Below are positions 13,221 through 38,733 of a stretch of DNA of 64,000 bases, piece by piece. Origin of the DNA: Bacteroidota bacterium (GTDB taxonomy: Bacteria > Bacteroidota > Ignavibacteria > SZUA-365). The stretch is from NCBI GenBank assembly GCA_029907355.1, contig JARYLZ010000001.1, positions 64,522-128,521 on the forward strand. Reading direction: 5' to 3'. How positions within the stretch are numbered: the first letter of the stretch is position 1; each line of letters starts with the position of its first letter. Below the pieces are notes generated by a model. The model saw nothing but the letters and a program-made list of their open reading frames with translations, made no database searches and was not told the origin of the DNA. A program made the position numbers and the translations under genes.

Positions 13221-16200
13221 TTAACGTTTGATAATAGGTCGTGCGAGAACCCTTTCACCGACATAGAGATAGATAATGTAGAAACCACCGGGGACGTCAC
13301 CGATTCCGATTTGCTTGATATAGGGACCTTGTACCCTCTCTTCTTGAGATTCATGAACCGAACGCCCAAGCAAATCACTGACAATGAGACGCACTTTTGA
13401 AGGGAAAGGAAGCTGAATCTCTACTGTAAAGAGCCCTTCATTCGGGTCCGGATATACCGAAAATGACTCAATCCCCAAATTATTTTCGATGCTGGTGGCA
13501 CGAAATTCGAATGGGGCTGACATAGAGAAACAACTGTCCTCATTCCAAACGGCGACGGAGTATTGTCCGTTCCTGGTGGGATTGTGCGTCCTTTGTGTCG
13601 CTCCCGTAATCGGTGCACTGCTGAAATACCACTGATACCGATACGCAGGGGTTGAAATCAATGTGTTTCCTATCTGCGTGATGACCGGGGTGGGGGGGGT
13701 CGGTTTGACGCGGACTTCGACAACATCGGATTCACCCACGCAACCATACTGATTCGTCACACGAACGTTGTACAAACCGCTTTGGGAAACGGTTATCCGC
13801 CTCGTTCTAGCGCCGGTTGACCATAAGTATGATTGATATCCCGATCCGGCATCGAGTTCAACGCTTCCTCCATCACAGAAATTTAAGGGTCCACCGGCTT
13901 TTATTTGTGGAACAGGTGTTGAGTGTCGAGTTACTGTAATCGGGGTTGATGTACCTATACACCCATTCGCATTCGTCACCGTCACGGAATATGTGCCTGA
14001 GGTTTTCACGGTGATTTTCCTGGTAATGGCGCCGGTGGACCATAGATAGGTAGCATACCCCGCACCGGCGTCAAGAACGACACTGTCGCCGGGGCAGAAT
14101 GATGTGGGTCCGCTTGCAGAGATAACCGGCTGCGGTTTCGAATACACCGTTACGGAAACGGGGGCTGATGTCCCCTGGCATCCGTTCGCATCCCGAACGG
14201 TGACAAGGTAATTCCCCGCGGACTTGACGGTGATCACTCGCGTCGTCCGACCGTTCGACCATTGATATGACGAGTACCCTCCTCCTGCATCCAGTCTGAC
14301 ACTGTCACCCTGGCAAAACTCTGTGGGACCGAGGGGTGTAATATGAGGCATAGGGAGAGGATTTACCGTTACCGTAACGGGATTCGACCTACCAACGCAA
14401 CCGGAATCCGTCCATACTGCCACGTAATAGGACCCTCCTTGATTGACCTTTATTGTTCTGGTATTCGCGCCATTTGACCAAAGATAGCGTGCATAGCCGC
14501 CTCCGGCATCAAGGGTGACCTCGTTCCCCTCACAAAATCTCAATGGGCCGCTTGCCGTAATCCTCGGTGTGGGAATTGAGTTCACGGTAATGTGGATCGG
14601 CGGGGATGTCGCTGAACACCCGTTATCATCCATGACGGTCACCGTGTAATCGCCGGGTGATTTTACCGTGATAAATCTGCTCGTCGCCCCCGTAGACCAG
14701 AGATAACCACCATAGAGACCGTACTTGTCTGCATCGAGGACTATACTGTCACCCTCGCAAAAACTTACCGGTCCCTTGGCGGTGATGCGCGGTTGTGGGA
14801 GCGGGTACACTGTGACGGTATATGAGGGGGATGTTTTCCTGCATCCGTTATACCCTGTCACGGTCACGAAGTATGTCCCCGGTTTCGTCACCGTGATTCG
14901 CCGTCCCCCCATTCCGTTCGACCACAAAAAGCTATCCCCGTAAGAAGAATCCGCTTCGAACGTCACGCTCCCCCCCGCACAGAAAGTCAATGGACCACTG
15001 ACGTTGACATGTGCGCGTGGGAGTGGCATGACGACGACTCGAACGGCGGGGGATTCCCCTCTGCATCCCTGAAGTGTGTTGACGTGCACTTTGTAGAGAC
15101 CGGGTTCCCGCACGACGATACTCTGGCTCGTGTCGATGGCGATCGTGTCACGATACCACAGGTAACCGGAATAGAGACGTGCGGAATCGATTGAAAGAAC
15201 GACACTGTCGTATTCGCAGAAGGTCAGTGGTCCGCTCGCACGAATAATTGGCATGGGGGGCGCGATGACATCCACGCGGACATCGTCGGTTTCGACGCAC
15301 CCATTGGCGTCGGTGACGGTCAATGTATACGTGGTCGGGAAAAACGGTCGTGCCCATGTACGTGGTGCCGTCGAATCGCTCAGTCCGCCTACGGGACTCC
15401 ATTTATATGTATACGGTGGGGTGCCCCCTGTAGCATTTGATCCGATCTGCACGCTGTCGCCACGACATATGGAAATATCCCTCGTGTCTTTGAGGCGGGG
15501 CCACGGGAGAAGCGCGATGAAAACGCTGTCGACCGACTTGCATCCGTTGGCGTCTGTCACCGTGACATAGTACCTCGTGGGTTCCAGGGGGCGCACAAGG
15601 GGTCGTGCGACACGGTTGGAACCGACGAAGTATTTCAACGGTGTCCATTCATATTTGTACGGGGGTTTCCCCCCTGTTGCCGTATCACCGATCTGCGTTA
15701 ACTCGTTCCTGCATACAATCTGGTCCGTTCCAGCTTCCGCAACAGGAGGTTGATTGACAACCACCGTAATCGTGTCCGAGGCAGTACAACCTTTTAGGTT
15801 CTTCACGGTGAGAACATAAACGGTTGTGCTTTGTGGAGAAGCCTTGGGATTCATGATCGTAGGATCCGTCAATCCCGTTGACGGTTGCCAGAGATAGGTA
15901 AACGGCCCGGCTTGGTTGCTGCCGACAGTCGCGGAAAGTTGGATGGAATCGCCGAGGCAGATGGACCGGTCATCTCCAGCATGAACGGTGAAATCGACGA
16001 TGGAAATGGTTACCGAATCGATACCCGAACAGCCATAGGCGTCGCGGGCAACAACAGTGTACGTCGTCGTTACCTGCGGTTTGGCATAGGGCCGCGCGAT
16101 CAAAGGATCGCTGAGTCCCTGGGCAGGTGTCCAGAAATACGTGTAGGGTGGGGTCCCTCCGGTTGCCACCGAACCGATCTGAACGCTGTCGCCTGAGCAG

Positions 16201-19200
16201 ATGAGCGAATCGACACCAGCCGAGACGACCGGTGTATTTTCAACGTAAACAACTACGGTGTCGGAAACTGTATTCGATGCTGCATCCGTCACGGTGAGTA
16301 CATACGTACAAGTTGTCGTCGGCGAAGCGGTTGGACGCATGGCGGTCGTGTCGCTTAATCCGGTTGCAGGGAACCATCGAAACGAGTATGGTGGTATCCC
16401 GCACACCGCGGTGTCCCCGATAACATCGGAACTTCCTTTGCAGAGATGGATATCGGGTCCTGCGAGTGCCGTAAAGCTCGTGTAGACGGAAACGTTGACC
16501 TGATCGGTGTCGGAACACCCCTGGCTGTCACGGACGACCAGTGTGTATTTCGTAGTCGATAACGGGAACGCAAGGGGGCGGGCGACATTCGTTTGGCTTA
16601 ATCCAATGGCAGGTGACCATGTATACTGGAGTGGACCGATACCGAAATTGCCGCCTCCGCCGAGACGAACTGTATCACCGGCGCAAAGGACACGATCAGT
16701 CCCCGCGTCAGCGATGACACGGTTTACCATGACAAGAACGGAGTCCACGGTACTGCAGCCGTTTGCATCCGTTACGGTAACCGTGTACCTCGTGGAGACT
16801 GGCGGTGATGCGATCGTCACTGAGTCGGTCGTCGAACTGAGACCGCTCGGCGGATTCCACGCGTAAGTATAAGGTGGGGTACCCCCGCTTGCCGAATGGC
16901 CTATTGCGACACTGCCACCACGACAAATCATAGTATCCGGACCCGCATGGAGTATGGGAAGGGCGAACACGAAAACCGTTACGGAATCCGTGGCAGTGCA
17001 GTTGTATGCATCCGTAATGGTAAGATGATACGTCGTTGTCACCGCTGGGAATGCAAGGGGGGTTGCGGAGGTTGAATCGTCGAGCGTCGTGTTGGGCCTC
17101 CAGATATAACGCAGCGGTCTGGCTCCCCCAACGGCTTGACCACCGATGCGGACACCGGACCCACGACAAATCGCAGTGTCACGACCTGCATCCGCAAACA
17201 GCGGGGATGCGACATTTACCCGGACGGTATCGGAGACACCGTGGCAACCGATCCCGTCTGTCACTCTCACTGCATACGAACCGGTCGTGTCAACGGTAAT
17301 CGTTCTTGTGGTCTCGAGCGTTGACCAGAGATAACTGGTGTATCCCGGACCCGCATCCAGGACCACTCGTCCACCTGGACAGAGATTCGTCGGTCCGCTG
17401 GCGGTTATGAGCGGCTTTACATCGCAAATTTTCGTGATGAAACCATCCACGGTTCCACCGTTTACATTTTGGACTGCGGAAAGAACGGGGAAATCGGTGC
17501 TCGAGGTCCAGCCGCCGAAAACGACATTCCCACTGTATTGTGCCATGATCGCATTCGCAGCGTCATCGCCATTCCCGCCAAAAAAGGTGGACCAGATCCG
17601 CCCTCCCTGCGGATTGAACTTTACGATGAAAGCATCCGTCGATCCGTTTTTCGAAGGCTGGATGGCATCCTGTGTAACGGGAAAATTTGTACTCGCAGTT
17701 TGGCCTGTGAAAGCAATGTTGCCATGGAAATCCGTGCTTACCCCGCTCGCATACTCGTCCTGGTTCCCCCCGTAAAATGTTGCCCATTCCCGCGCACCTG
17801 TCGGACTGAAAACGCAGAGAAATGCTTCTTGACCACTCATCAGGTATGGACGGAACGCATTCGCCACAGGGAAATTCGCACTCTCCGTCCTCCCGACCAT
17901 GACGGGACGCTGGAACTTGTCGACGGCGAGCCCGTGTGCGATATCGAAGGCGCTTCCCCCGTAATACGTCGCCCAGAGACGAGTGCCGTCGGAAGCAAGT
18001 TTCACGAGGAATGCATCTCCCTGCCCGGCCTGGGTGTTCTGCAAACATCCTACAGACACCGGGAAATTCGTGCTGTTCGTGTTCCCTGCAAAGTACACGT
18101 TGCCGCTCGAATCACAGCCCACTGCCCGAGCGACATCTCCCATCATCCCTCCATAATATGTCGTCCAAATTTGCGTTCCCGTCCCGCTGAATTTGGCAAC
18201 GAATGCATCACCGACACCTGCGATCACGGTCTGGTAAGCCCCAGGAGTGACAGGGAAATTTGCGCTGGTCGTCACACCAGTTACCAGAATATTTCCACTC
18301 CGGTCCGTCGCCACCGCATACGCGTTGTCGTCGGCTCCGCCTCCCAGGTAAGTCGCCCACTGTAAAGACCCTAATGCATCGAAACACAAAAGGAAACCGT
18401 CATACATTCCCCCATTCTGTTCCTGGAATGCTCCCGCTGTTGTGGGGAATGATGTACTGTTCGTTTCACCTGCTACGATGATGTTCCCGTTCCCTGCCAC
18501 TGCAACCGACGTTGCGGCATCATTACCGGTTCCCCCGTAATAGGTTGCCCAGAGACGCGTTCCTGAAGAATTGAATTTCACGACGAAAGCATCAAGACTG
18601 CCAGCGTTTATGGATTGGACCGCACCCGCGGTGACCGGCAAATTCGTGCTGTATGTGAATCCGCATACAATGACGTTCCCTCCTGCGTCGGTTGTAACGG
18701 ATGTTATCCGATCGCCGTTCGAGCCGCCGTAATACGTCGACCAGTGAACGGTTGGGTCGATCACGAGAGGGAATCGTCCATCATAGGTACCAACGTCGAA
18801 ATGGATTTCTCTGCCATCCACACGGAAGGAGGAAGGGACCGTCGGCATACCGGAAGCGTAGGGAGAGGACAAATCGGGAGGTTGATAACAGAAAGGTCGT
18901 TCTTCTTTCAAGCATCCGAATGGATTCTCCACGATGAGATCCCTCTCTTCTCCGATAGATAGGGATTTTGCTCCCGCAACTCGAAGCTTGATATCCTCCG
19001 GGCGTCCACGAGGATGAACTACAAACTCATACTTGATTCCTGTATCGGTAATTCTAAAGATCAGGTCGATCCCCTCGTAGAGATTTTCATAAATGATGCA
19101 TCGGTATTCATGCGCCATGAGATTGAGAGCACCACCCCTATGGTACATGACCGGTGTTTCCACTTTGTCGACGCCTCGCACGGATACATCCTGGTTTGCA

Positions 19201-19604
19201 TCAACGAACTCGATATCCATCCTATATGATTCGCATGATTTCGCGAAGGAGTGACCATAGTCGGCCTTGGGTATCTCACCCGTTCCCTTTTCGAAGTTCG
19301 GTTTGAGAAAAACATAGCTGACATGCTTCCTCGTAAAGAAGAGACTCGTCGAACCGTAAGAGACCGTAAAGAGAACGTCTTCTTGAACGGAACCGTCTAC
19401 ATTGTAAATCTGACCTTTGTTCTCGACGAAACCTCTCACGGGATTCGAACTCATCCGCCTAATGAAAGCCTCCGGAAAAAGAACTTTTCCCGATGGATAA
19501 TCGACGGAGGACTTTTCGAAATTTCTCGCGATTGCGATCCGGTTAGCGGTTAGAAAAGTCCCGCTCATCAGTAGCACAGGAAAAATCGAGCGCAGGAAAT
19601 TCAT
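13221..19604 (-). CDS. giant T9SS cargo surface protein with SBBP beta-propeller repeats, SprB-type repeats and Ig-like repeats
   Basis: 2127-aa ORF with a signal peptide. Repeated GN..V.G.T.S.NFPV blocks are SBBP-type beta-propeller units. Repeated C.GDSV.IG..A.GGTPPYTY.W blocks are SprB-type. About 8 Ig-like units of roughly 78 aa (GP..FC.GDSV.LDAG.GY..YLWSTG...ITV...G.Y.V.V.D.NGC) follow. The C-terminal roughly 80 aa looks like a T9SS CTD. Confidence 0.9.
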   Translation of the reverse strand: MNFLRSIFPVLLMSGTFLTANRIAIARNFEKSSVDYPSGKVLFPEAFIRRMSSNPVRGFVENKGQIYNVDGSVQEDVLFTVSYGSTSLFFTRKHVSYVFLKPNFEKGTGEIPKADYGHSFAKSCESYRMDIEFVDANQDVSVRGVDKVETPVMYHRGGALNLMAHEYRCIIYENLYEGIDLIFRITDTGIKYEFVVHPRGRPEDIKLRVAGAKSLSIGEERDLIVENPFGCLKEERPFCYQPPDLSSPYASGMPTVPSSFRVDGREIHFDVGTYDGRFPLVIDPTVHWSTYYGGSNGDRITSVTTDAGGNVIVCGFTYSTNLPVTAGAVQSINAGSLDAFVVKFNSSGTRLWATYYGGTGNDAATSVAVAGNGNIIVAGETNSTSFPTTAGAFQEQNGGMYDGFLLCFDALGSLQWATYLGGGADDNAYAVATDRSGNILVTGVTTSANFPVTPGAYQTVIAGVGDAFVAKFSGTGTQIWTTYYGGMMGDVARAVGCDSSGNVYFAGNTNSTNFPVSVGCLQNTQAGQGDAFLVKLASDGTRLWATYYGGSAFDIAHGLAVDKFQRPVMVGRTESANFPVANAFRPYLMSGQEAFLCVFSPTGAREWATFYGGNQDEYASGVSTDFHGNIAFTGQTASTNFPVTQDAIQPSKNGSTDAFIVKFNPQGGRIWSTFFGGNGDDAANAIMAQYSGNVVFGGWTSSTDFPVLSAVQNVNGGTVDGFITKICDVKPLITASGPTNLCPGGRVVLDAGPGYTSYLWSTLETTRTITVDTTGSYAVRVTDGIGCHGVSDTVRVNVASPLFADAGRDTAICRGSGVRIGGQAVGGARPLRYIWRPNTTLDDSTSATPLAFPAVTTTYHLTITDAYNCTATDSVTVFVFALPILHAGPDTMICRGGSVAIGHSASGGTPPYTYAWNPPSGLSSTTDSVTIASPPVSTRYTVTVTDANGCSTVDSVLVMVNRVIADAGTDRVLCAGDTVRLGGGGNFGIGPLQYTWSPAIGLSQTNVARPLAFPLSTTKYTLVVRDSQGCSDTDQVNVSVYTSFTALAGPDIHLCKGSSDVIGDTAVCGIPPYSFRWFPATGLSDTTAMRPTASPTTTCTYVLTVTDAASNTVSDTVVVYVENTPVVSAGVDSLICSGDSVQIGSVATGGTPPYTYFWTPAQGLSDPLIARPYAKPQVTTTYTVVARDAYGCSGIDSVTISIVDFTVHAGDDRSICLGDSIQLSATVGSNQAGPFTYLWQPSTGLTDPTIMNPKASPQSTTVYVLTVKNLKGCTASDTITVVVNQPPVAEAGTDQIVCRNELTQIGDTATGGKPPYKYEWTPLKYFVGSNRVARPLVRPLEPTRYYVTVTDANGCKSVDSVFIALLPWPRLKDTRDISICRGDSVQIGSNATGGTPPYTYKWSPVGGLSDSTAPRTWARPFFPTTYTLTVTDANGCVETDDVRVDVIAPPMPIIRASGPLTFCEYDSVVLSIDSARLYSGYLWYRDTIAIDTSQSIVVREPGLYKVHVNTLQGCRGESPAVRVVVMPLPRAHVNVSGPLTFCAGGSVTFEADSSYGDSFLWSNGMGGRRITVTKPGTYFVTVTGYNGCRKTSPSYTVTVYPLPQPRITAKGPVSFCEGDSIVLDADKYGLYGGYLWSTGATSRFITVKSPGDYTVTVMDDNGCSATSPPIHITVNSIPTPRITASGPLRFCEGNEVTLDAGGGYARYLWSNGANTRTIKVNQGGSYYVAVWTDSGCVGRSNPVTVTVNPLPMPHITPLGPTEFCQGDSVRLDAGGGYSSYQWSNGRTTRVITVKSAGNYLVTVRDANGCQGTSAPVSVTVYSKPQPVISASGPTSFCPGDSVVLDAGAGYATYLWSTGAITRKITVKTSGTYSVTVTNANGCIGTSTPITVTRHSTPVPQIKAGGPLNFCDGGSVELDAGSGYQSYLWSTGARTRRITVSQSGLYNVRVTNQYGCVGESDVVEVRVKPTPPTPVITQIGNTLISTPAYRYQWYFSSAPITGATQRTHNPTRNGQYSVAVWNEDSCFSMSAPFEFRATSIENNLGIESFSVYPDPNEGLFTVEIQLPFPSKVRLIVSDLLGRSVHESQEERVQGPYIKQIGIGDVPGGFYIIYLYVGERVLARPIIKR
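13560..15260 (-). repeat. array of about 8 tandem Ig-like coding repeats (roughly 234 nt each) inside the 2127-aa gene
   Basis: The translated repeats are diverged at roughly 50-60% aa identity. Coordinates are approximate, derived from residue positions. Confidence 0.5.
15260..17450 (-). repeat. array of about 9 SprB-type coding repeats (roughly 85-100 aa each) inside the 2127-aa gene
   Basis: The recurring motif is AG.D..IC.G.SV.IG..A.GG.PPY.Y.W.P..GLSD. Boundaries are approximate. Confidence 0.45.
17450..18758 (-). repeat. SBBP-type beta-propeller coding repeats (about 7 blades) inside the 2127-aa gene
   Basis: The recurring motif is YYGG...D.A..V..D..GN....G.T.S.NFPVT.GA.Q. Boundaries are approximate. 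Confidence 0.45.
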
Positions 19605-20161: not shown

Positions 20162-23100
20162 ATGCGTTGTCGGGACATTCTCATAGAAATCTCTTTTCTC
20201 CTAATCTGTTTCGCCACGGATTCATTTACCCAAATCGGGATAGCGGTTCAAATCGATCCATCACCATCCCCGTATATCTCCGACTGGCGTTCGAATCCGA
20301 ACACGGTTCGATTCATCGTCACGAACCCGACTTCGATGACGTACGAAGTACGTTTCGTTGGGTACATAGAAGGCGAACGGCGAGGCCGAATTGCTGAAAC
20401 CAAAATTGATGCTGCAATCCAACCCGTTATTATTCCACCTGGTACGTCGAGTTTCAATGGTGTCGATGCCCACCTCGTAGAAGAAGGGGTGGTTCGATAC
20501 ATCGGTTCCTCTCGGGCAGAAACCGAGCGCACGGGTCGTATCCCCGAAGACAGGTACCGTCTTTGCATTGAGATTGTCTCCTATAAGAATCCTCAACAAA
20601 AATTGTCTCCTGAAACCTGCACCTCTTTTGAGATCAAGATACTATCGCCGCCCTCTCTTATCTCTCCCGCCGATAAAACCAGCATTACTCTTCTCCCGAC
20701 ATTTCAATGGTCTGCCGTGCCTATGGGCATCGGTGTCTTCGCTTCCTACGAACTTACCGTCGTGCGCCTCGAACAAGGGCAAATGAATGTTGCCCATGCA
20801 ATGGAAACGAATGTTCCTTTCCTCCAACGTGAAACGACACTGCCTCTCTATACCTGCCTGCCCTCAGACCCACAATTCACAGCAGGAACCTACGCTTGGC
20901 GGGTACGCGCTTTCGATCCCAACAATCGCTACACATTCAACAATCAGGGGAAGAGCGAAATTTGGTCCTTCACGTATCGCGAAGATGTTCGGATAACCGG
21001 GACCGTTCCGAGAAGACCTTCCCCTTCGGCTGGACTTGATTTATCGAGGCCGAATTTTCTCTATACCGGACTGACACGTATTCGGGGCACACTGAAGGTG
21101 ACATTCCTAAAGGGAATGATTCCGCCGCCGAAAAGTATCATCATCCCCCCACCGGGTAAGGGACAATTACCCCTGCCTGATCATCCGACCCAGCAACAGC
21201 TTCCTCAACAACAGACTCAACCACAAGCAGGCACTCTCCAAGCTCAAGGGGTTTCACTCGCCGCTTCCCTGAGTAAACCCGCACAAGCCCTCGGTGGATT
21301 ACATCTCAAGCTGTATAAGTGTTATCAACCACATCCCACGACAGGTTGCTTCGATCAGGCCAGCTTTACAGTCAACGGCAAATTATACATGGGAAAAACC
21401 CTCGTCGCAACGACGGTCACTCAGGAAGATGGTTCGTTCGAGTTCACGTTCTTCGCTTCCGATTCGACAGGTCGTGTTGCGAAAAATACTTCTATCCGAT
21501 GCGGCTCATCTACTTCGGAGTTTAGCAGTATCATCACGGGGGATTTCTATGGATTTTACACAATCGAAGTGACAGACCCTCATCTCTGTAGCCCATCCGA
21601 CCGCTTTATCGTCCAGCCGCTCGAGAACGCCGACGTCGGAACACTGTACTCCCTAGTCCGGTGGTACACCGTTACTATTCGTACGAACCACTACGAAGTG
21701 AAAGCGGGATCGGAATCCGTCATATATCCATTGAGCGGGATAAAAGTCCGTGTCATGCGCGTTTCTCGCCCGTACGATATCCCCTCGAATGAGGGAGAAA
21801 TTTCCGAGCCATTGATGGGCTCGATGACGGTCATCGCGGAGGGTATCACCAATGCCATGGGCGAGGTGTCTTTCAAGTATTTGGTGAAAAGCGTTGGGCC
21901 AAATGACCGATACCTCCTACGCGCGGAAACCGCCGAAGGCTCGGAATATTACTATTATAGCGCCTTTGAAAGCTTTAGGAATTCGTTCCTCTTGGACGAG
22001 AAGGACGACGCCGGCAATGGACTGTTTTTCGATTATGCGGTGCTAAACGAGGATTACGATCCCACAAAAATGAAAGCGACAGAGATCGTGCCAATGATCC
22101 CGAAGCCCCCGCGAATTCTCGGGAGCGTATATCGAAAAGACAATCCTAACTCCCCGGTTGCTGGTGCATGCATACTTCTCTACCGTACAGTAGGGACAAC
22201 CAGGTATGTGGAACGTATTCAATGGACCGACGCATCAGGCAAATTCTGTTTCGAAAATATCGAACCGGCACAGGATACATCGCACACGAGCGACGTGTAT
22301 TATCAACTGAAAATCATCAAATCTGGCTTCAAGGGATTACTGTTCCCAGAGCGAAAAGAGGACGCCTATCGTCCTACGATCGGAAGGCAAAAAATCACTC
22401 CGAAAATTCTCCTCGAACCGGATATGATCGTGAGCGGAAAAATCGTCGATGAATTAGGAAGACCTGTGAAAGCGTGGGTGCAAATTGATGATGGTGAAAA
22501 AGTGCATACCGTGACGAAATTCGTCCCGAAACGGATATCGTCTCAGCCTACCGATATGAACATAGATGACAATGGCATCGTGCGGTGTATACGGAAAATC
22601 CAGGGAACCCAGCAACAAGAACTGCACATCACATATACTGCACCGCGCGCTGCCCTCACTCAAAAATCAAGATTTCGGTTGACTGCTTCCGGCATACTCG
22701 TTGACACGGAAGAGGAATTCCGCTCCGCTTATGCCCCGCAACCGAATAAGGAAGCACGCGTGATTATCACGCCGGATGACCTCGCCACGTGGTTCCCTGA
22801 AACGTTGCGCGTTTGCTGCGGCGGTATGGCATATTTCGGGGAATTTGTCGTTTCCCTCAAACTCCGTCGTCTGGCAGTAGTGGCAGTCAAGATGCATTCA
22901 GAGCCGCCGACTCGGCAGCGTACGGAAGGGGGCCTCCAGACAGGCGGAGAACGCACGAGAACTAAGATCACCTCTCAATACATGCAGCAAATCACTAGCC
23001 AGACTATGGCCGGTGGCGGGTTACGCCAGGCTCTCCTGTTCACCGGTGGCGTGATGCAACTCATTCAGCCTGAACTGTTATTCCTTCCTACGGAGATCGT

Positions 23101-26035
23101 GAAGGATGCCGTCATCAGGGTCAACGGGATGGAACCGGACTCCATCGACAATGAGGGTGTACATTATTTCGCATGGCAATCTATAGGAGCGAACACGGAA
23201 ATCCATGTGGAAGGCCCGCCGGGCTCGAATTTCGTCCCGAGAGATATTACGGGGATTTCCACACCCGTCAGCCGCACATGGACACTCTACCCGGCACTTT
23301 TATCTCAGGGGGGAAAATTAGCCGGAACAGTTCGCGTGGGTAGCGTTCCAATCCCTAATGCACGTGTCATGCTCTTCGATAATCCATCCGATCCCACTCC
23401 ACTTCAGACAACAACAAACAGCGAAGGAAAATATGAACTTCCGGGTGTACCACTCGGTCTGCACACTTTCCGGGCGACGAAATCGAGCAGCCAATACATC
23501 GGTGACACAGTTTCCACCATCGTGAAAACGTCAGAAACCACGATGTTGGATTTCCAGCTTACCCTTTACAATGACATGGATATTACACATCTCCTCGGTT
23601 TTCCAATCGAGGTGAGCGCGTTGGACTCGTCAATGGGATCCATTCGGATTTCTGGGAATTTCTGCAATCTGCCGGCCAACGCCCATTTTTCTGTCGACAC
23701 AGCGAAGACGATCCTCCACTTCTCCGATATCGTGATCATACCTTCGACAGAAACGAATGTAAACGGTATCCCCCTTGCTCAGCCGTCGTCGATTCCACTG
23801 ATCACGGATGTCAACACGTTCGGAGTGAAAGCGTTTGGGCTCTTCAAGGCTAACCAATTCGACCCCATGAACGGGGTACGTGTTTCACTGGCAGAAGGAC
23901 GCGGAGAAATAACTGGCACTATCCGAATAGACCCGGCATCATTCACCGTCAGTCCCGGCTCGATTGATTTTGACCAGTCCTGGTTATACCTCGCTCCACC
24001 GCAACCGGAAGGGCCGCTCACACTCTCATCGATAACGTCCGATGCTTCGGTACCCCTTGCAATCCCCCATGGCTACCGTGTCGTGAATGAAAGTGGGCAA
24101 GGTCTCGAATATACTCTCTACGATTTCCCTGCACGTGGTGATCCTGTACTCTCATACCTTCTCGACGATACCCTTTCTCTGCGGACGACGGTCCACACGG
24201 ATATCATCGGAACGGTGAACCCTGATCTGGCAATCGATCTCGGTAACCTTCGAATTCACCATGCTTCTATCGAACCGATTTTATCGACAAAGGTTACGAC
24301 AATCGGTCTTGAGGGAGAATGGAAACTCATCGCGAAATCATGGCGGATAGACAATAATGGGTTTACACTTGACAGTGGTTACGTTGACACTGGGCCGATA
24401 TATATCCGATTTACTGGCATAAAAGTATTTCCCGATCACTTGGATTTCGGGGTATTCAATCTCACGGAACTCCCCCTAGCGGGGATTACCACGATGACGG
24501 TCACAGGGAAGGCTGTTTTCGGTATCGACGGCGGTGTGGGGAGCTGGGCACTGTCTGTCGTACCTCAGACGGGGGAAGATATTTGCGGCTGGGCGAATGC
24601 TCTCCCAGGAATGGCTTCCAACGACAAGATCCGATTCAATAATTTCTTTATCCGCGCGAATGACTCGAAAGGATTCACCCTAGCGGGAGGGAACCAAGTT
24701 ACCTTCCATAAGGTAGCGAAATGGAATCTCAACCATTTCTACGTCGCACCCAATCTCATTCAGTTGTCGGGCAATCTCGACCTCCAGATCCCGAATTTCC
24801 CCCCATTCAATTACCCGGTCTCCTACTCGATCATTGACAATGAATTGAAATGCGTGATTGTCCCGATCGATCAAACGATTGCCGTGAACGGCGTCGAGAT
24901 TGTATTCATCGCAAGCGGAACGAACCCGCAATACTGGGATAACACCGGTTTTCACAGCAGCGTTTACGTTCAGGAGCAAGGCGCCTTCCGCTTACGGAGC
25001 ATGCTTCACCGGACATTGCAGAAAACCAATATCATCGTCAACCAGGGCGAGGAAACATACATTGGGGACGATCACACGGCGAAATTCACGAACGTGACGG
25101 GGGAAATGCTCGTCGAAAATGACGAATGGACGCTGTTCTGGTATGAAGGCGACCTTCAGAATTCGAACCAAGGGGGTCGCATCCATTTCGTTGTCGAAGG
25201 GGAGATTGTCGCGAACAACCAAGAGATCGGTGTCGACAAAATCGAAACACCCTTCGGTGATATCCGCATCGTGTACAATTTCCAGAAGCAACGCCTCGAG
25301 GGGAATCTCGATATCGACTGCGACCTCGGGGGAACGAAAGTCAAAGGCGGCGGAAATCTTCTCATCAGCGGGACGGGCAAAGGATGGTACTTCCGATTCT
25401 ACATCACGTTCAAACTACCTACACCCACCGTTGAGGGTTCTGCAGTGTTCATTTGCGGGAATTGGCAGATGGAACAAGAGCAGTTGGATGATTTCGCACA
25501 ATATTCCTACAAGAACAAACCGCTCCCGGCACAGTTCCACAACCTCCGCGGTTTCTTTTTCGAAGGGACCGTTATGGTCCAGCCATCGGTTTTTTGCCCG
25601 AATTTCGAGTTCAACTTCATTCTCGTCTCTGCCTATATGGAATGCATGGTCGGTGCGAACGCTCGGTTCGGAATGAACTTCGGACCTGAGTATACAACCT
25701 TTTTCATCGCCATAAGAGGGATCATTCATCTCGAAGCCGGGGTTGGACTCTCCGTCGTTGTCTTCTGCGCAGGTTTAACCCTCGGCATCGACATCGAACC
25801 GAACATCGAAGGAGTTTTCCAAACAAATGGGGATTGGTACGTAAAAGGGCAACTGCCGATTATCATTTACGGATCATGCTACTGCGGAGGAGGTTTCTGT
25901 GACAGTCAATGCGAAGGAGATCTTTGCGTGAAGGAGGAGGCGAGCGGGAGTATCGAAATGGGCGCCGAAGCGTATTATGGTTCGAAGGATGGAAAGGATG
26001 AGCAATACTTTAAATTTTACTTCAAGAGCGAATAA
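20162..26035 (+). CDS. giant secreted hypothetical protein (1957 aa) with N-terminal two-domain module, Pro/Gln-rich linker, carboxypeptidase-regulatory-like beta-sandwich domains and Cys-rich C-terminus
   Basis: Signal peptide and strong RBS. Residues about 40-285 form a module that is duplicated in the downstream 314-aa gene. The linker reads PPPKSIIIPPPGKGQLPLPDHPTQQQLPQQQTQPQ. Segments such as GSVYRKDNPNSPVAGACILLYR...DASGKFCFENIEP and GTVRVGSVPIPNARVMLFDN...NSEGKYELPGVPLG look like CarboxypepD_reg-like folds. The C-terminus contains CYCGGGFCDSQCEGDLC. I see no T9SS CTD. Confidence 0.85.
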   Translation: MRCRDILIEISFLLICFATDSFTQIGIAVQIDPSPSPYISDWRSNPNTVRFIVTNPTSMTYEVRFVGYIEGERRGRIAETKIDAAIQPVIIPPGTSSFNGVDAHLVEEGVVRYIGSSRAETERTGRIPEDRYRLCIEIVSYKNPQQKLSPETCTSFEIKILSPPSLISPADKTSITLLPTFQWSAVPMGIGVFASYELTVVRLEQGQMNVAHAMETNVPFLQRETTLPLYTCLPSDPQFTAGTYAWRVRAFDPNNRYTFNNQGKSEIWSFTYREDVRITGTVPRRPSPSAGLDLSRPNFLYTGLTRIRGTLKVTFLKGMIPPPKSIIIPPPGKGQLPLPDHPTQQQLPQQQTQPQAGTLQAQGVSLAASLSKPAQALGGLHLKLYKCYQPHPTTGCFDQASFTVNGKLYMGKTLVATTVTQEDGSFEFTFFASDSTGRVAKNTSIRCGSSTSEFSSIITGDFYGFYTIEVTDPHLCSPSDRFIVQPLENADVGTLYSLVRWYTVTIRTNHYEVKAGSESVIYPLSGIKVRVMRVSRPYDIPSNEGEISEPLMGSMTVIAEGITNAMGEVSFKYLVKSVGPNDRYLLRAETAEGSEYYYYSAFESFRNSFLLDEKDDAGNGLFFDYAVLNEDYDPTKMKATEIVPMIPKPPRILGSVYRKDNPNSPVAGACILLYRTVGTTRYVERIQWTDASGKFCFENIEPAQDTSHTSDVYYQLKIIKSGFKGLLFPERKEDAYRPTIGRQKITPKILLEPDMIVSGKIVDELGRPVKAWVQIDDGEKVHTVTKFVPKRISSQPTDMNIDDNGIVRCIRKIQGTQQQELHITYTAPRAALTQKSRFRLTASGILVDTEEEFRSAYAPQPNKEARVIITPDDLATWFPETLRVCCGGMAYFGEFVVSLKLRRLAVVAVKMHSEPPTRQRTEGGLQTGGERTRTKITSQYMQQITSQTMAGGGLRQALLFTGGVMQLIQPELLFLPTEIVKDAVIRVNGMEPDSIDNEGVHYFAWQSIGANTEIHVEGPPGSNFVPRDITGISTPVSRTWTLYPALLSQGGKLAGTVRVGSVPIPNARVMLFDNPSDPTPLQTTTNSEGKYELPGVPLGLHTFRATKSSSQYIGDTVSTIVKTSETTMLDFQLTLYNDMDITHLLGFPIEVSALDSSMGSIRISGNFCNLPANAHFSVDTAKTILHFSDIVIIPSTETNVNGIPLAQPSSIPLITDVNTFGVKAFGLFKANQFDPMNGVRVSLAEGRGEITGTIRIDPASFTVSPGSIDFDQSWLYLAPPQPEGPLTLSSITSDASVPLAIPHGYRVVNESGQGLEYTLYDFPARGDPVLSYLLDDTLSLRTTVHTDIIGTVNPDLAIDLGNLRIHHASIEPILSTKVTTIGLEGEWKLIAKSWRIDNNGFTLDSGYVDTGPIYIRFTGIKVFPDHLDFGVFNLTELPLAGITTMTVTGKAVFGIDGGVGSWALSVVPQTGEDICGWANALPGMASNDKIRFNNFFIRANDSKGFTLAGGNQVTFHKVAKWNLNHFYVAPNLIQLSGNLDLQIPNFPPFNYPVSYSIIDNELKCVIVPIDQTIAVNGVEIVFIASGTNPQYWDNTGFHSSVYVQEQGAFRLRSMLHRTLQKTNIIVNQGEETYIGDDHTAKFTNVTGEMLVENDEWTLFWYEGDLQNSNQGGRIHFVVEGEIVANNQEIGVDKIETPFGDIRIVYNFQKQRLEGNLDIDCDLGGTKVKGGGNLLISGTGKGWYFRFYITFKLPTPTVEGSAVFICGNWQMEQEQLDDFAQYSYKNKPLPAQFHNLRGFFFEGTVMVQPSVFCPNFEFNFILVSAYMECMVGANARFGMNFGPEYTTFFIAIRGIIHLEAGVGLSVVVFCAGLTLGIDIEPNIEGVFQTNGDWYVKGQLPIIIYGSCYCGGGFCDSQCEGDLCVKEEASGSIEMGAEAYYGSKDGKDEQYFKFYFKSE

Positions 26036-26131: not shown

Positions 26132-27076
26132 ATGGTTCTCAAGACAAGGCCGAAAAACATGAACCGACGCATCCACATCCTCACTGTCGTCAGCATTTGG
26201 TCTTTCGTCATTACAACGGCGTCCGCGCAGCTCTCTCTCGTCGTGCAATTCGAACCCTTACCCTCTCCTTATATCTCCGATTGGCGCTCCCACCCTAACA
26301 CGATCCGATTCATTCTCACAAACCCAACAGGCACACCTGTTACCGGTCGGCTCAAAGCTTATATCGAAGGCGATATCCGAGGTCGTGTGGCGGAAACCAA
26401 ACTCAACGCGAAGATTCAACCGATCACTGTACCACCGGGGACATCGACTTTCAATGCTGTTGATGCTCGATTCATCGAAGAAGGCGCGATCCGTTATATC
26501 GGACCGACGAAAGATGAAACGAAAAGAACAGGTCGATTACCAGAAGACCATTTTCGCATTTGTGCACAGTTTGTCGCGTACCATGATCCATATTCTCCGC
26601 TCTCGAACGAATCCTGCGCGACGTTCGAAATCCATTTCCTCCTTCCTCCCTCGTTGATCACTCCCAGCGACACAGCCATTGTTCAATCTCTTCCAGTTTT
26701 CCAATGGTCATTCGTTCCCCTTTTTATGGGTGAATTCACGAAATACGAATTGAAAATCGTTGAACTGGAACCCGGTCAAAAGAACCCGCAAGACGCGATT
26801 TTAACGAACATTCCTCTTCTCGTACGTGAAACAGATTTGCCGATGTACGCTTATCTCCCTTCCGATCCACCTCTTGAAAAAGGGAAAACATACGCTTGGC
26901 GGGTTCAAGCATTTCATCCTGACTCGAGATTTGTATTCGCGAAGAGAGGTCTCAGCGAAACGTGGAGTTTCACCTACATGCCCACCATTCCCCCGTCTAT
27001 CAAAACAGAAGAGCAAACTGGCGGAAATACAGGTACCTCTGATGAAATATGGGAAAGAAAGCGTCCTTCAAATTAA
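26132..27076 (+). CDS. secreted hypothetical protein, standalone paralogue of the N-terminal module of the 1957-aa protein
   Basis: Signal peptide (TTASAQ). It aligns to the giant protein over about 280 aa: PSPYISDWRS.PNT.RFI.TNPT, AETK..A.IQP...PPGTS.FN.VDA, RYIG......TGR.PED, P.FQWS.VP, YAWRV.AF.P, and ETWSFTY all match. The C-terminal half of the module looks FN3-like. Confidence 0.8.
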   Translation: MVLKTRPKNMNRRIHILTVVSIWSFVITTASAQLSLVVQFEPLPSPYISDWRSHPNTIRFILTNPTGTPVTGRLKAYIEGDIRGRVAETKLNAKIQPITVPPGTSTFNAVDARFIEEGAIRYIGPTKDETKRTGRLPEDHFRICAQFVAYHDPYSPLSNESCATFEIHFLLPPSLITPSDTAIVQSLPVFQWSFVPLFMGEFTKYELKIVELEPGQKNPQDAILTNIPLLVRETDLPMYAYLPSDPPLEKGKTYAWRVQAFHPDSRFVFAKRGLSETWSFTYMPTIPPSIKTEEQTGGNTGTSDEIWERKRPSN

Positions 27077-27306: not shown

Positions 27307-29391
27307 ATGATGCATATGTATCCCTCAGAGATTTTCCCATTCTTGCGAATGATACCAATGAAGTCGCTCCCCTTTCATTCAATGTGGACGATTCTCTTCA
27401 TTCTGGCAATGCAGGTTCCTATCACACAATGCCAGCAACGCAAATCTGTTCACGCGGGGCCCCAAGGCATCTGGGTTGATCTCGGCGAATACGTTCTGCC
27501 GGCACGCATCGAAGGTAATGCCTGCCAATTTTACATCGTCGAACGAAAGGCGATCGGCGAGAATAGATGGGAAACCGTAGCAAAAGTCCAGGGTCCGACG
27601 TCACAACACGAATTCGAGAAAGCAGTCCAAGCACAGACATATCGATTCCCCGAGTTGCGCACGCTAACAATACAGTACTCCGAAATCTGGAAATCGCTTG
27701 AAAAAAAGAGAACTATTTCCTCTATCGGATTCCTCGGCCAGTCGCTCCCTATCCAAGCAGCCCTTGGAACTCGGTGGTACGATACAACGGCGGAGAAAGG
27801 GAAGGTCTACCATTACCAGGTGAGCCGAGTTGCTGAAGACGGAATGACAACAGACCGCGTGACGAGCGAACCTATCTCATATCCCCAGCCTGCAGCGACA
27901 CCACGACTCCTCGTGTATCGTCATTACTCGGATGCGTCCGCCGTCAACGTCGTCTGGACACCCGGGAAACAAAAGAACATCGGATCGTTCAAAATATACA
28001 GGCGAGAAGGTGTCAGTGGCCCATTCGAACATTTGCCCGTCAATGTTAAGGACACCTGCTGCATTGTCAGCGCAGGATTCATGTCACGAGGGGACAGCCT
28101 TTTCTGCACGATCATCGACCGGACGATAAAAACTGGAACTGTTTATCAATACTACATTAAGCCGATGGACATCTTTCAGAACGCGGGGATGGAAAGCGAC
28201 ACCGCGACGGTTTACTCATTCGATATGATCCATGTCCCTTTGCCGCAACAATTCCACATCCGCTCGATCGATTCCGTCGGTATCCAGATACGCTGGACTC
28301 TTTATGATACTAGCGCTGTCCATGGAGTGATCATCGAGCGAAGCAGGGATTTCGACACTGGTTATGTAGAACTTTTCACTGCATCACCACGTGATACGGC
28401 ATTCACTGACATAACCGTTACCCCGATGGAGCGCTATTATTACCGCCTCAAGATAGTCGGACCGGGGGGAATCGTCTCAGGGCAGAGCGCAAAAATCATG
28501 GGACATTTCCGCAGCAATATTGAACCGACACCCCCTGAGGGTATCCGAGCGGAAGGTATCCACGGCGGAATCCGCGTCTCATGGTTCTCTGACACAGAAC
28601 AACTTCTCGAAGGGTATTACGTGTACCGCTCGGAAGGCTTGATTGATACCATGGTGCAAATCTCCACACTTTTGCCTCCCGGCACGACACAATTCCTCGA
28701 TACACTCGGCATGCAGGCAGGCCGTATATATGCCTACTGCCTTCGGAGTGTAAGCTCAAGTCATATTCCCAGCGTACCGTCGGACACAGTTACCGCCCAA
28801 CCAATCATACCCATGGGAGTCTCCACACCTATGGGACTTGCCGCATACGCGGACGAGCATGCCATTCACCTGACGTGGCAAGGACAGAAGGAACGCGATC
28901 CCTCGTTGGACGGTTTCCGTGTTTATCGCCGTGAAGGGACAAGCCGTTGGAAGACTTTAAATAGCACGCTTCTACCCCCTCAGCAAAACTTTTTCGACGA
29001 TAATACCGCTGAGCCTGGGAAGAAATATTTCTACGCGGTACAGGCTTATTCGGTCGAAGGCGATAGCAGTAGCTGGAGTATGATCGCGAGTACAATAATC
29101 CCACTGCCTCGCCTATATCCACCTGGGAACCTTACTGCGAAAGTCGAGAAGAACAATATTCGATTGTCTTGGGATGAAATTGTTCAACCGAATGCAACGG
29201 GATTCAAAGTATACAAGTACACTAGGGGTTCTAAACCACATCCTATAGCGACGCTTCCCTTAACCCAACGGGAGTACGTCGATATGAATCCTGGATCGGG
29301 ATCCCCCATTTTCTATTTCGTCACGACAATTGGGAAATACGACACGGAAAGCGCAGGTGGGAATGAAATTTCAATACGACGAATGCCGTGA
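27307..29391 (+). CDS. secreted protein with about 6-7 tandem FN3-like domains
   Basis: The probable start is the internal Met at about 27346 (MIPMKSLPFHSMWTILFILAMQVPITQC is a signal peptide). The recurring pattern is W......GF.VYR.EG......L and YYY..AV.-type beta-sandwich signatures. Confidence 0.8.
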   Translation: MMHMYPSEIFPFLRMIPMKSLPFHSMWTILFILAMQVPITQCQQRKSVHAGPQGIWVDLGEYVLPARIEGNACQFYIVERKAIGENRWETVAKVQGPTSQHEFEKAVQAQTYRFPELRTLTIQYSEIWKSLEKKRTISSIGFLGQSLPIQAALGTRWYDTTAEKGKVYHYQVSRVAEDGMTTDRVTSEPISYPQPAATPRLLVYRHYSDASAVNVVWTPGKQKNIGSFKIYRREGVSGPFEHLPVNVKDTCCIVSAGFMSRGDSLFCTIIDRTIKTGTVYQYYIKPMDIFQNAGMESDTATVYSFDMIHVPLPQQFHIRSIDSVGIQIRWTLYDTSAVHGVIIERSRDFDTGYVELFTASPRDTAFTDITVTPMERYYYRLKIVGPGGIVSGQSAKIMGHFRSNIEPTPPEGIRAEGIHGGIRVSWFSDTEQLLEGYYVYRSEGLIDTMVQISTLLPPGTTQFLDTLGMQAGRIYAYCLRSVSSSHIPSVPSDTVTAQPIIPMGVSTPMGLAAYADEHAIHLTWQGQKERDPSLDGFRVYRREGTSRWKTLNSTLLPPQQNFFDDNTAEPGKKYFYAVQAYSVEGDSSSWSMIASTIIPLPRLYPPGNLTAKVEKNNIRLSWDEIVQPNATGFKVYKYTRGSKPHPIATLPLTQREYVDMNPGSGSPIFYFVTTIGKYDTESAGGNEISIRRMP

Positions 29392-29438: not shown

Positions 29439-32400
29439 TCAATTGTGGATAAATTGGGAAACAGCGTCGGTAGTGAAATTCACTGCAACGATCTTCGAAA
29501 CGCCCTCTTCTTCCATGGTGACTCCATAGAGGGTATCCGCAGCCGCCATAGTTTTCTTATTGTGAGTGACGATGATGAATTGGATGTTATCGGAGAAAGA
29601 TCGAAGAATTCGGAGGAACCGGTCGATATTTGCATCATCGAGTGGAGCGTCAACTTCATCCAGGATACAAAAAGGGCTTGGTTTCACGAGGTAGATCGAA
29701 AAAAGCAAGGCGATGGCGGTGAGGGTTTTCTCGCCCTGAGAAAGCATCTCTATAGAATGAGGGCGCTTTCCGCTGGGTTTCGCGATGATATCTATTCGTG
29801 CTTCGAGGGGGTCTTCACCATCGGCGAGAATAATGTCCGCTTCGTCGCCCTTTTCGAAAAGTGATTGAAATACGTCAAAAAAGTTCTTTCGTATTTCGTT
29901 GAACGTTTCAAGAAATTTTGTTTTCGCCGTCTCATTGATTTCCTGAATTGTCTCCGTCAACGTTTGTCGTGACTCGATGATATCCTCACGTTGAGCGAGC
30001 AAGAGATCGAGGCGCTCTTTTTCCTTCCTCCATTCCTCAAAAGCGAGAGGATTCACAGGCCCGAGCGTTCGGATTTTCTCACGGAGCACATTGATCTCCT
30101 CCTTCGCTTGTGAAAGGTCGAAAACATCCTCCTCCCCGCTCAGGTCCTCCGTTTCGATTGACGATAATTCGAATTCATCCCGTGCTCTTTGTTCGAGCGT
30201 CGCCATTCGGTGGCGTATTTCTTCTATTTTAAGTTCGGTTTCGTGAACGATCGACGTCAAACGATTGAAATCCTGGCGAAGTCCGTGGAGAACATTTTCC
30301 CTCTCTTCGATCACGTGCCGCAGGTCGGATAGGGTCTTCTCGACGCTCCGGACCCTTTCCTCGGCGGAACGACGTTCTTCTTTCCATTGCTCAAGCGTCA
30401 ACTGAGTGGAAGTGCGCTCCTTGAGAAGCGCTTCGAGTAGCCGTCGGGCATCCACAATCTCTTGTTCGGTCTGGGTCACCAAACGATGCAGCTCGAGGAA
30501 AGAGTCTCGATAATGATCGCGTTGATTGAGAATGTTCTGGATTTCAGCCGATTTCCCCACACGCGCCAAGTGTTTGTCGTTTAGAGTAGTCATGCTCCGA
30601 GAATATTCCTCTTCGAGGCGATGCAATTCACATGACTCCATCTCGATTTCGATTTCCATGCTTTCCTTCTCTCGCTTGCAACGTTCGAGTGCCGGGAGTA
30701 GTGCACTGTGCTCTGCAACATCGCGTTGGTACTCCTCTATGAGAAGAGCTCGTTCATCGGTGATTTTTGAAAGAGTCCGAACATATTCATCTTCCTCGAA
30801 AATCATCTGGGCAGTGTGCTGTTCAAAGGTTGAGAGGTCTTGCTGGGACTGCTTCATGTTTTCGGCGTATTCTTTCAGGTCAATAGACTCGTATTCCTGA
30901 ACCTTTCTTTCCACCAACTGCTGATTTTTCACTAATGCTGCTTTCAACTCTTGAACTTCGCGTTCCAATCGAGAAATTTTTTCTTTCTTCCCGATGATTC
31001 CCACCTCCTCTTGGTTGTTACTACCGCCTCGAACTAATCCATTGCTATCGAAGAGATCACCATCAAGCGTTACACAACGGATGTCACGGTGTTCGCGCAT
31101 ACATCGATGGGCGGTTTCTGCGTCACGAACGATGAGAACATTCCGAAGGAGAAATTGAAAGAGGGGAAGGTATGTCGTCGGACACGAGATCAGATCGATC
31201 GCCCAGCCGAAGATCCCCTCTCCAGCAATTGAGAACGGAATGGCAACGCTTTCCGGTATCCGGGAGAGACATACGAAAGTCGCTCTTCCCTTCCGTTGAT
31301 CTTTGAGAAGGTATAGACCGGTAATGGCTTCTGCGATATCATGTACAACAATGTACTGCGCCGCCTCGGTAAGAGCCGCTTCGATTGCCGCACGATAGGT
31401 TTCCTTCGTATCGACTACATCGGCTACTGTCACGATATCTGTCACAGACCACTCACGGTTCTGAAGTAAATACTGGACGCTTTGCGGATACCCTTCAAAT
31501 CTACTCACGAGACCCGAAAGAAAATCCAACTGCGTCATTCGTTCCCCAATTTTACCCTGTAGATCGAACGAAATATTCTGCAAGCGGTCTATCTCGGCCC
31601 GCAGAGCTTGTTTCCTTTCTTCCATTTCATGGAATTTTTGCTCAGCACGTACAGCTGACTCGAGAATTCCGGATCTCTTTATTTTTTCTCTAGAAAGACG
31701 CTCACGAACAGTTTGAAGTGCGCTGGCTATACGGTTTTCATCCTCCGCAAGTTTCTCTAGGCGGTTTTTCGCCGCTTCCATACGAGTCGCGTATCGATCG
31801 ATTTCACTCTGGACCTGCGACAGCTTCTCATGCACTTGAAGAAGAAGACTTCGACGGCGATCGGCATCGAGTTTTTTTTGTGATACAACGCTTTCAAGAT
31901 CCGTGTGAATCGAGCGATGCTCCATTTCATCTCGCTCAATGATAGCAAGTTCATTCTCAAGCTTTTCCAACTCGATAACCGCTTGCGCCTCGTTTCTCTG
32001 CATCTCCTCAATCCGCCGAGTGTAGGACTCTTTTTCACCTTGAAGACGTTGGATCGTCTCAAGAATATTTCTTTCCCTCTCTGCATTAACTGCAAAATCT
32101 TGTTCACAATTCATGATTTTAGAGATCCAGAGAGCTAATTCGCCACGAGCCGAGTCCAACCGGTTCTCAATTTCCCGCTCGCTTACCCGATACGATTGAA
32201 GTTGTGCCTCTTCACGGATCACATTTTCTTCAATGGAGAAACGTAACATAGTATCAGCCTTCAAACGTTCCGCCAGTGGTCCAAGTCTCCCCGCCAGCGT
32301 TGTATAATCCCTTTTTATCACATCGATCTCAAGGGATCGAAGCCTTTCAATAAGATGATTATACCGTTCGGCCTTTTTGGATTGACGAATGAGAGAATTC

Positions 32401-33005: not shown

Positions 33006-33141
33006 GCGAACAGCGAGACAATTAATGAGTACAGGAAAGAGATCGTGTTTATTAAGATTCTGGAAAACAAGGGAATGGGACCATATATTGCATCGAGAAA
33101 GATAAATCTGGGAACGCGGATGAACACCCAAAAGATATTAT

Positions 33142-35790: not shown

Positions 35791-36110
35791 TGGAAGGGAA
35801 ATAAAAGTTGTTGATGGGAATGCGCTTCAACGCGTAAGGGAAAGAGATGATAAGATTCGCACTTTAATTTGAAAGAAAAAATAGTGACAAGAACTCTGCC
35901 AAGCACATAGTGGTAAGAGAATAATAATTCTATCTCGATGGGTTTGGATTCGTTCTCTATTCTCTATGACCCATCATGTCAATATGTGGTAAGAAAATCA
36001 TATCCATCTCGATAAAAAATAGCATGGATAAATAGCCGACAAATCAACAACTATTACCTTATGCTACAAAAAAACAATAAGATAATACATGTTTCACATG
36101 GAACCCAAAA

Positions 36111-37967: not shown

Positions 37968-38177
37968 TCATGGCACTGGATCGTGACCGTACCCTCCCCA
38001 GGGGGCACAATGGAGAATTCTTTTCAAACTTAAAAAAACTCCTTTTAACGCACCGTGTTTGTTAATCGCTTCGATTGCATAGGAAGAACACGTTGGTATG
38101 TACCTGCATGAAGATGGAAAAAGGGGCGAAAGAACCCCTTGATAGACATGTATGATAAATATTAATGCTTTTTTCAT
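37968..38177 (-). CDS. yidD: membrane protein insertion efficiency factor YidD
   Basis: 69 aa. [35 protein letters not shown] is the YidD signature. The gene abuts the yidC start. Confidence 0.85.
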
Positions 38178-38180
38178 CCG

Positions 38181-38600: not shown

Positions 38601-38733
38601 TGACGGTTAGCTTCCATCTTCCCTTTGCACGTCTTCGGGCTAAAATCTTTCTTCCATTTTTTGTTTTTATCCGTTGACGGAATCCATGCGTATTCCGTCT
38701 TTTTCTTACACTTGGTTGATAAGTCCTTTTCAT
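38578..38733 (-). CDS. rpmH: 50S ribosomal protein L34
   Basis: This gene is below the ORF-track length cut-off. Reverse-strand translation gives [51 protein letters not shown], which matches the L34 consensus (MKRTFQPS..KR...HGFR.RM.T..GR.VL..RR.KGRK.L). It sits immediately upstream of rnpA. Confidence 0.85.

Follow-up and report, generated by a model that had tools for sequence, protein, structure and literature searches.

The window analysed here, 64,000 nucleotides of a Bacteroidota bacterium (contig JARYLZ010000001.1, positions 64,522 to 128,521), contains at 20162..26035 (+ strand, stop codon included) a gene for a protein of 1957 amino acids (aa), hereafter the giant. Our analysis suggests that the giant is a divergent TANFOR-family giant envelope protein, of a kind found in Bacteroidota and related lineages of the Fibrobacteres-Chlorobi-Bacteroidetes (FCB) group, and that its export or anchoring depends on partner proteins, not on a C-terminal sorting domain (CTD) of its own. 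We put the probability of this reading at roughly 55%. The giant itself belongs to a known, uncharacterised kind of protein; what is new is its undescribed terminal domain and its family's conserved partnership with a porin-like protein and a protein with multiple fibronectin type III (Fn3) domains. At the level of the family, the TANFOR giants have a uniform core in common, whose confidently modelled terminal domain has no structural relative in PDB or BFVD, and this core is almost always flanked by genes for the porin-like and multi-Fn3 proteins.

Family membership and relation to TANFOR proteins

The original prediction, made from the DNA letters alone, suggested that the giant may define a new giant-protein family. 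This suggestion did not hold. A profile of the last 318 aa (the C-domain, aa 1640-1957; 25079..26032) was searched against 1.84 billion representative proteins, clustered at 50% identity. At E<=1e-3 it matched at least 414 clusters, and at the stricter E<=1e-10 it matched 342. These matches nearly always ended within a few residues of the C-terminus, in proteins of 1.8-2.6 thousand aa. For comparison, the family alignment was divided into seven parts, namely the N-module (23-275), a first (380-650) and a second (651-1045) middle region, CarboxypepD_reg (1046-1135), a first (1136-1400) and a second (1401-1639) beta region, and the C-domain (1640-1957). All seven were present in 120 of 137 relatives of at least 1700 aa, and most of the others lacked one or two only. 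These findings indicate that the giant is no orphan; it is a member of a very large and uniform giant-protein family, and the TANFOR class to which that family relates was published in 2020.

The gene begins with ATG, and GGAGG is located 7 nt 5′ of the start codon. Nineteen full-length homologues from Bacteroidota-type metagenome bins were 43-47% identical to the giant across 99-100% of its length, so the gene is evidently real. A promoter and terminator scan at the locus performed no better than shuffles. The translation contained every string quoted in the original prediction, i.e., a Pro/Gln-rich linker, AGVGLSVVVFCAGLTLGIDI, CYCGGGFCDSQCEGDLC, and YFKFYFKSE, which forms the C-terminal end (aa 1949-1957). 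The close relatives are named "carboxypeptidase-like regulatory domain-containing protein" by NCBI, and a cluster look-up of the long relatives returned generic names only. A word-indexed search with the C-domain profile revealed just 4 short fragments. Among PDB sequences the giant had no match at E<=1, and an Ig-like match of 82 aa, itself marginal, was all that the family profile returned. For annotation, hundreds of giants now called "carboxypeptidase regulatory-like domain-containing" could be renamed, and the C-domain could be defined as a family of its own. In one related locus (L017, 1682-7537) the giant is split into two open reading frames of 603 and 1348 aa; the cause could be a frameshift, decay into a pseudogene or faulty assembly.

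The giant's features described below all lie on the + strand. A signal peptide had been proposed, and we judged it by eye from hydropathy and from alignment to the family consensus (MK..LLL..A.A↓QL.LAVQ, the cleavage context being ...AxA↓Q). Residues 1-23 (20162..20230) form a probable Sec/signal peptidase I (SPI) signal peptide with predicted cleavage before Q24, a residue at least 90% conserved and nearly invariant in the family alignment. The N-module (aa 24-275; 20231..20986) appears to combine a distant TANFOR-like domain with an Fn3-like subdomain on its C-terminal side, as indicated by BLASTP, TIGR02542 matches and a paralog. This paralog, a stand-alone 314-aa protein with its own putative signal peptide, is encoded immediately downstream (26132..27076, +); it is 54% identical to aa ~6-272 of the giant, in line with the earlier description of the N-module as shared, and ends in a 30-aa low-complexity tail. 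The Pro/Gln-rich linker (aa 321-355; 21122..21226) lies where conservation in the family alignment is among the lowest. "Several" CarboxypepD_reg-like beta-sandwiches had been claimed. One was detected by Pfam at aa 1053-1134 (23318..23563; PF13620, 48.8 bits vs cut-off 32.3). A second, with approximate boundaries at aa ~651-740 (22112..22381), was supported by hhalign, in which family region 651-702 matched the CarboxypepD_reg region with 92.6% probability, and by a sub-threshold Pfam match to SdrD_B at aa 660-704. A third was merely hinted at. The following stretch, aa 1135-1639 (23564..25078), was modelled by AlphaFold2 (AF2) as a long all-beta hairpin meander; it is kept in relatives, belongs to no Pfam family, and showed no internal repeats in hhalign self-comparisons.

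In 2020, Jana, Salomon and Bosis presented the TANFOR proteins as a class of Bacteroidetes polymorphic toxins (PMC7073777). They carry Sec signals, and their gene neighbourhoods are enriched in SprB, Fn3/COG3401, PKD and Por_Secre_tail (PMC7073777). The type IX secretion system (T9SS) is present in >95% of TANFOR genomes, and export of TANFOR proteins by this system was only hypothesised (PMC7073777). We found no later paper on their export mechanism.

Residues 23-272 of the giant matched protein P0030, named TANFOR domain-containing protein by the Joint Genome Institute (JGI), with a BLASTP E-value of 4e-23. The TIGR02542 profile scored 43 bits for P0030, 27 bits for P0028 and 21 bits for P0035. 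A longer protein, P0134 (3004 aa), scored 157.7 bits with TIGR02542 (cut-off 67) and carried the C-domain at its end (E=7e-43). P0134 has both a TANFOR domain and a C-domain and thus ties the giant's family to the TANFOR giants; P0134 together with the N-module matches indicates that bona fide TANFOR giants and the giant share both ends. Comparison of the C-domain with P0030, one of the relatives that match the giant by their N-module alone, gave a probability of only 12.5% (hhalign). The locus also fits a TANFOR neighbourhood, with a SprB/PKD protein bearing a sub-threshold CTD upstream and a multi-Fn3 protein downstream, and the giant resembles TANFOR proteins in being a large protein with a (putative) Sec signal, encoded in a T9SS-bearing Bacteroidota genome beside Fn3, SprB, PKD and CTD proteins. 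Two features of TANFOR proteins were lacking. The formal TIGR02542 score was not reached, and no toxin with an immunity gene was present: Pfam and NCBIfam revealed no toxin profile in the giant or in 11 diverse C-domains of the family, and the downstream genes encode the N-module paralog and the Fn3 protein and include no small immunity gene. Membership of the TANFOR giant family in the broad sense is shown at the level of sequence comparison; the giant appears to be a divergent, toxin-less member whose N-module is a putative distant TANFOR domain.

Conserved partner genes and proposed export route

A total of 24 related loci were collected and scanned with profiles. A gene for a multi-Fn3 protein of ~520-690 aa was located downstream of the giant gene in 23 of 23 loci. 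In the window, this partner has 694 aa (27307..29391, +; Pfam fn3) and is 42-44% identical to the corresponding proteins of loci L001 and L003. A second gene, for a protein of ~570 aa that we refer to as U, adjoined the giant gene in all 18 other loci with enough flanking sequence; it was immediately upstream in 17 and followed the Fn3 gene in L008. The loci bearing U include relatives that share just ~25-30% identity (L004, L005 and L008, from Pedobacter). The gene order in L008 (6001-15535) is giant, Fn3 protein, U. The only exceptions were the window and L015. These two have the same layout: L015 contains a homologue, with 54% identity, of the protein of 2127 aa encoded divergently upstream in the window, a giant with 46.5% identity and an Fn3 protein with 50% identity. 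The stand-alone N-module paralog, which occupies the slot between the giant and Fn3 genes, was found in the window and in none of the 23 other loci. Several of the contigs that bear the trio (L009, L015 and L022) are labelled "uncultured Chromatiales bacterium", and a further relative bears the label Gemmatimonadota. Such labels may stem from mistakes in binning or naming, or may point to a wider distribution.

The same trio of a ~550-aa protein, a giant and a ~665-aa Fn3 protein occurs around three published TANFOR-type giants: WP_052449025.1 of Tannerella forsythia, WP_019942835.1 of Dyadobacter and WP_151166343.1 of Salibacter (PMC7073777). In T. forsythia, the slot after the giant is occupied by a small restriction endonuclease (REase)-like protein (PMC7073777, table). 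The T. forsythia giant was detected in an outer-membrane vesicle/extracellular vesicle (OMV/EV) proteome (PMC10682907).

U is annotated everywhere as hypothetical and has 287 relatives of uniform length. One member, P0183, passed the gathering score of Pfam Porin_4 (32.5 vs 27), and other members showed scattered weak matches to Opacity, OMP_b-brl, OMP_b-brl_2 and PagL. At the C-terminus of U, Tyr Y562 is invariant and an aromatic Phe closes the family consensus (F567, invariant among 7 sequences). The U profile matched nothing among PDB sequences, and no homology was detected between U and any part of the giant. The profile matches and the aromatic C-terminus, though weak indications, suggest that U is an outer-membrane beta-barrel.

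On the basis of these observations, we propose the following route. The giant would cross the inner membrane by Sec and be cleaved before Q24. It would be extracytoplasmic, as suggested by its Ig-like arrays and by conserved loop cysteines, which fit an oxidising extracytoplasmic location. Passage through the outer membrane, or attachment to it, may then rely on the co-encoded U and the multi-Fn3 protein of ~680 aa, in an arrangement resembling two-partner secretion (TPS) or a barrel with a docked partner; either the N-module or the terminal beta-domain could be the docking element. In the genome of the window, where only the Fn3 partner is adjacent, U would have to be encoded elsewhere or replaced. 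The U/Fn3 partnership offers a concrete and testable alternative to export by T9SS. A more far-reaching version of this proposal, which we regard as tentative and rather doubtful, is that U, the giant and the multi-Fn3 protein constitute a system of Bacteroidota, not recognised before, that is dedicated to export or anchoring at the outer membrane and is similar in function to TPS. The 318-aa domain would then have a new fold and serve to dock the giant onto the barrel, the system would be the delivery route of TANFOR toxins, and the slot between the giant and Fn3 genes would hold variable cargo or accessory proteins (the REase-like toxin in T. forsythia, the free N-module here).

Several observations weigh against partner-dependent export of a TANFOR-family giant. 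Residues 1-313 of the giant scored only 17.7 bits on TIGR02542 (E=0.0026; profile positions 77-144 only), compared with the NCBIfam cut-off of 67. The giant's own signal peptide is atypical, with a Glu within the hydrophobic region (h-region). The assignment of U as a barrel is built on weak profile matches. No U homologue was found in the 64 kb of the window by tblastn, by a hidden Markov model of four sequences run at --max (noise) or by profile scan; this absence is the main weakness of the proposed mechanism, as the locus itself can give no proof of dependence on the partners. The TANFOR proteins of Flavobacteriia have other neighbours, with a PKD lipoprotein upstream (PMC7073777), and the N-module is therefore not strictly tied to U.

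Sorting signals and the C-terminal domain

The NCBIfam scan of the giant gave no match at E<=0.01, and Pfam revealed beta-sandwich domains only. Eleven diverse C-domains of the family, searched at E<=10 against Pfam and NCBIfam, matched no T9SS CTD, autotransporter, OMP, TamB/AsmA or CTERM profile. Type A (TIGR04183/PF18962) and type B (TIGR04131) CTDs were not detected in the giant or in the 11 C-domains; the same profile searches detected a type A CTD in the S8 peptidase encoded nearby and a weak one in the 2127-aa neighbour. The giant had no profile match to an autotransporter barrel (PF03797 or similar) or to an N-terminal TPS domain, no lipobox within aa 1-40, no LPXTG at its C-terminus (the only LPxTG-like string is the internal LPLAG at aa 1437) and no NCBIfam match to PEP-/GlyGly-CTERM. 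The original prediction had seen no T9SS CTD, LPXTG, lipobox or autotransporter barrel, and at the level of profiles and motifs this agrees with our results. A match of the C-terminus to a known CTD or sorting profile would have told against it; NCBIfam, Pfam and Foldseek gave none. The C-terminal third was among the best-conserved parts of the family alignment and hence is not a polymorphic toxin, nor is it a peculiarity of one lineage. As the family's conserved end module, the terminal domain is not a known sorting tag either.

Among the rival explanations, the first to be considered is that the giant is a T9SS substrate whose signal is non-canonical and could be, for instance, the N-module or the terminal beta-domain, in line with a speculation of Jana et al. 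on TANFOR proteins. The S8 subtilase (9310-12336, - strand; Sortilin/BNR repeats) has a type A CTD, with Por_Secre_tail above the cut-off, and this clear CTD indicates that the organism has a T9SS. The 2127-aa protein encoded divergently from the giant (13221..19604, -) contains DUF7948, SBBP beta-propeller repeats and PKD/SprB/Ig_7 domains together with a sub-threshold CTD (21 bits), and it is syntenic in L015. Published data point in the same direction: SprB, PKD and CTD proteins are enriched in the vicinity of TANFOR genes, and T9SS is frequent in TANFOR genomes (PMC7073777). However, neither CTD type was found in the giant or, even at E<=10, in the 11 C-domains; the terminal domain has 318 aa and ~19 strands and is not an 80-aa Ig-like CTD; and the genes in tight synteny are those for U and the Fn3 partner rather than for T9SS components. 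We consider export of the giant by T9SS unlikely, although it is the best of the alternatives.

The C-terminus had been described as strand-like, and structure prediction bore this out. The AF2 model of aa 1135-1957, built from a 26-sequence alignment, was a hairpin meander made up entirely of beta-strands except for one short helical insert (predicted local distance difference test score, pLDDT, 83.7; predicted TM-score, pTM, 0.51). Modelled alone with 50 sequences, the last 318 aa formed a compact domain of ~19 antiparallel strands with pLDDT 92.4 and pTM 0.81. The string AGVGLSVVVFCAGLTLGIDI (aa 1859-1878; 25736-25795), earlier noted as a hydrophobic stretch, is present; however, it is no membrane helix, but the end of one strand plus the next strand of a beta-hairpin, with pLDDT >90. 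The Cys cluster CYCGGGFCDSQCEGDLC (aa 1906-1922; 25877..25927) is a loop between two long strands, before the penultimate strand, and YFKFYFK makes up the final strand. Among the giant's close relatives, C1913 and C1922 show at least 90% conservation, but the P0020-24 clade lacks the cluster, which is thus a clade-specific loop: the cluster that was noted exists, and its conservation is confined to the close clade.

A second explanation is that the C-domain is an outer-membrane-embedded barrel or partial barrel, serving as an autotransporter-like anchor. Its strands are amphipathic, with alternating residues, and are joined by tight hairpins; the last strand has alternating aromatic residues, and the P0020-23 clade ends in ...FEFLSF. 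In Foldseek, the top matches were all outer-membrane barrels. However, no PDB match to the C-domain reached E<=1e-3, and the viral library BFVD gave nothing. The query TM-score (TMq) of the listed neighbours was ~0.2 for porins and autotransporter barrels (0.17-0.27 for BrkA and EspP, E>0.05) and at best 0.41, for the walls of TonB-dependent receptors, with a root-mean-square deviation of ~20 Å. No Autotransporter or OMP profile matched, and the last residues of the giant are K-S-E, not aromatic. The strands alternate between hydrophobic and polar residues over their full 19-21 residues. Hydrophobic faces of this length exceed a membrane belt, and we therefore favour, over a transmembrane barrel, a putative sandwich or taco of two layers whose hydrophobic face would be buried. 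An embedded barrel appears improbable.

A third explanation is that the 820-aa beta region is a groove that bridges the periplasm in the manner of AsmA, TamB or LptD and carries lipid or other hydrophobic cargo. The region forms an uninterrupted beta-meander that is hydrophobic on one face, and the best Foldseek matches of the 823-aa model were full-length LptD proteins (E 2.4e-7); ushers, porins, ApoB100 and MTP were also listed. The TM-scores were ~0.1, however, and the LptD, usher and porin matches are therefore read as generic beta-meander similarity. AsmA, DUF490 and LptD profiles matched neither the giant nor the 11 C-domains, as was also the case for the TamB/AsmA and type B CTD comparison suggested with the original prediction. 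The N-terminus of the giant looks cleavable and would be a signal peptide, not a membrane anchor, and the N-terminal half is an Ig-like array typical of surface proteins. We regard a lipid-bridging groove as quite improbable. Finally, it is most unlikely that the giant is a TANFOR-class polymorphic toxin with its Cys-rich C-terminus as a new toxin domain: TANFOR proteins were described as polymorphic toxins (PMC7073777) and the C-terminus matches no known family, but conservation of the C-domain is among the highest in the protein, its presence in at least 414 clusters means that it is not polymorphic, the downstream genes are the N-module paralog and the Fn3 partner with no small immunity gene, and the Cys cluster is missing in whole clades.

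Other genes of the window and comparison with known systems

Elsewhere in the window, G+C falls from about 0.50-0.55 to 0.36-0.42 at 32000-40000. This low-GC stretch contains an 882-aa open reading frame resembling glycoside hydrolase family 2 (GH2), yidC (36111-37967) and a 547-aa open reading frame without Pfam match (39009-40652) beside a sugar transferase; the position of yidC, a housekeeping gene, in such a stretch is odd. At 42263-45259 (-), a 998-aa fusion protein combines the N- and C-terminal domains of glycoside hydrolase family 3 with a beta-lactamase/transpeptidase-like domain.

TANFOR proteins, like the giant, are giant-sized Bacteroidota proteins with a Sec signal and a homologous N-module. 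The giant differs from them in having no toxin domain and no immunity gene, in the conserved C-terminus of its family, and in a locus without porin-like gene. The outer-membrane barrels and the LptD/AsmA-like grooves share with the giant an antiparallel hairpin meander with one hydrophobic face, and they are its only (weak) Foldseek neighbours; the giant is set apart from them by TM-scores of 0.1-0.4, by the lack of a significant E-value for the C-domain alone and by the lack of sequence-profile similarity. T9SS cargo (TIGR04183/PF18962, TIGR04131) comes from the same phylum and includes the same type of large multi-Ig surface protein, and the giant gene stands beside a gene for true T9SS cargo. 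In contrast to such cargo, the giant has a CTD of neither type, and its terminal domain is four times larger and has another predicted fold.

A further, putative analogy is with two-partner secretion and contact-dependent inhibition (CDI) systems (TpsB-TpsA and CdiB-CdiA; type Vb secretion system, T5bSS). U and the giant differ from these systems in lacking POTRA/ShlB and TPS/haemagglutination profiles, and the loci differ in gene order and in their obligatory third partner, the Fn3 protein. The resemblance is that, in relatives of the giant, a probable barrel gene lies beside the gene for a giant exoprotein with a conserved N-terminal module, and that some members of the giant family also carry or adjoin toxin modules.

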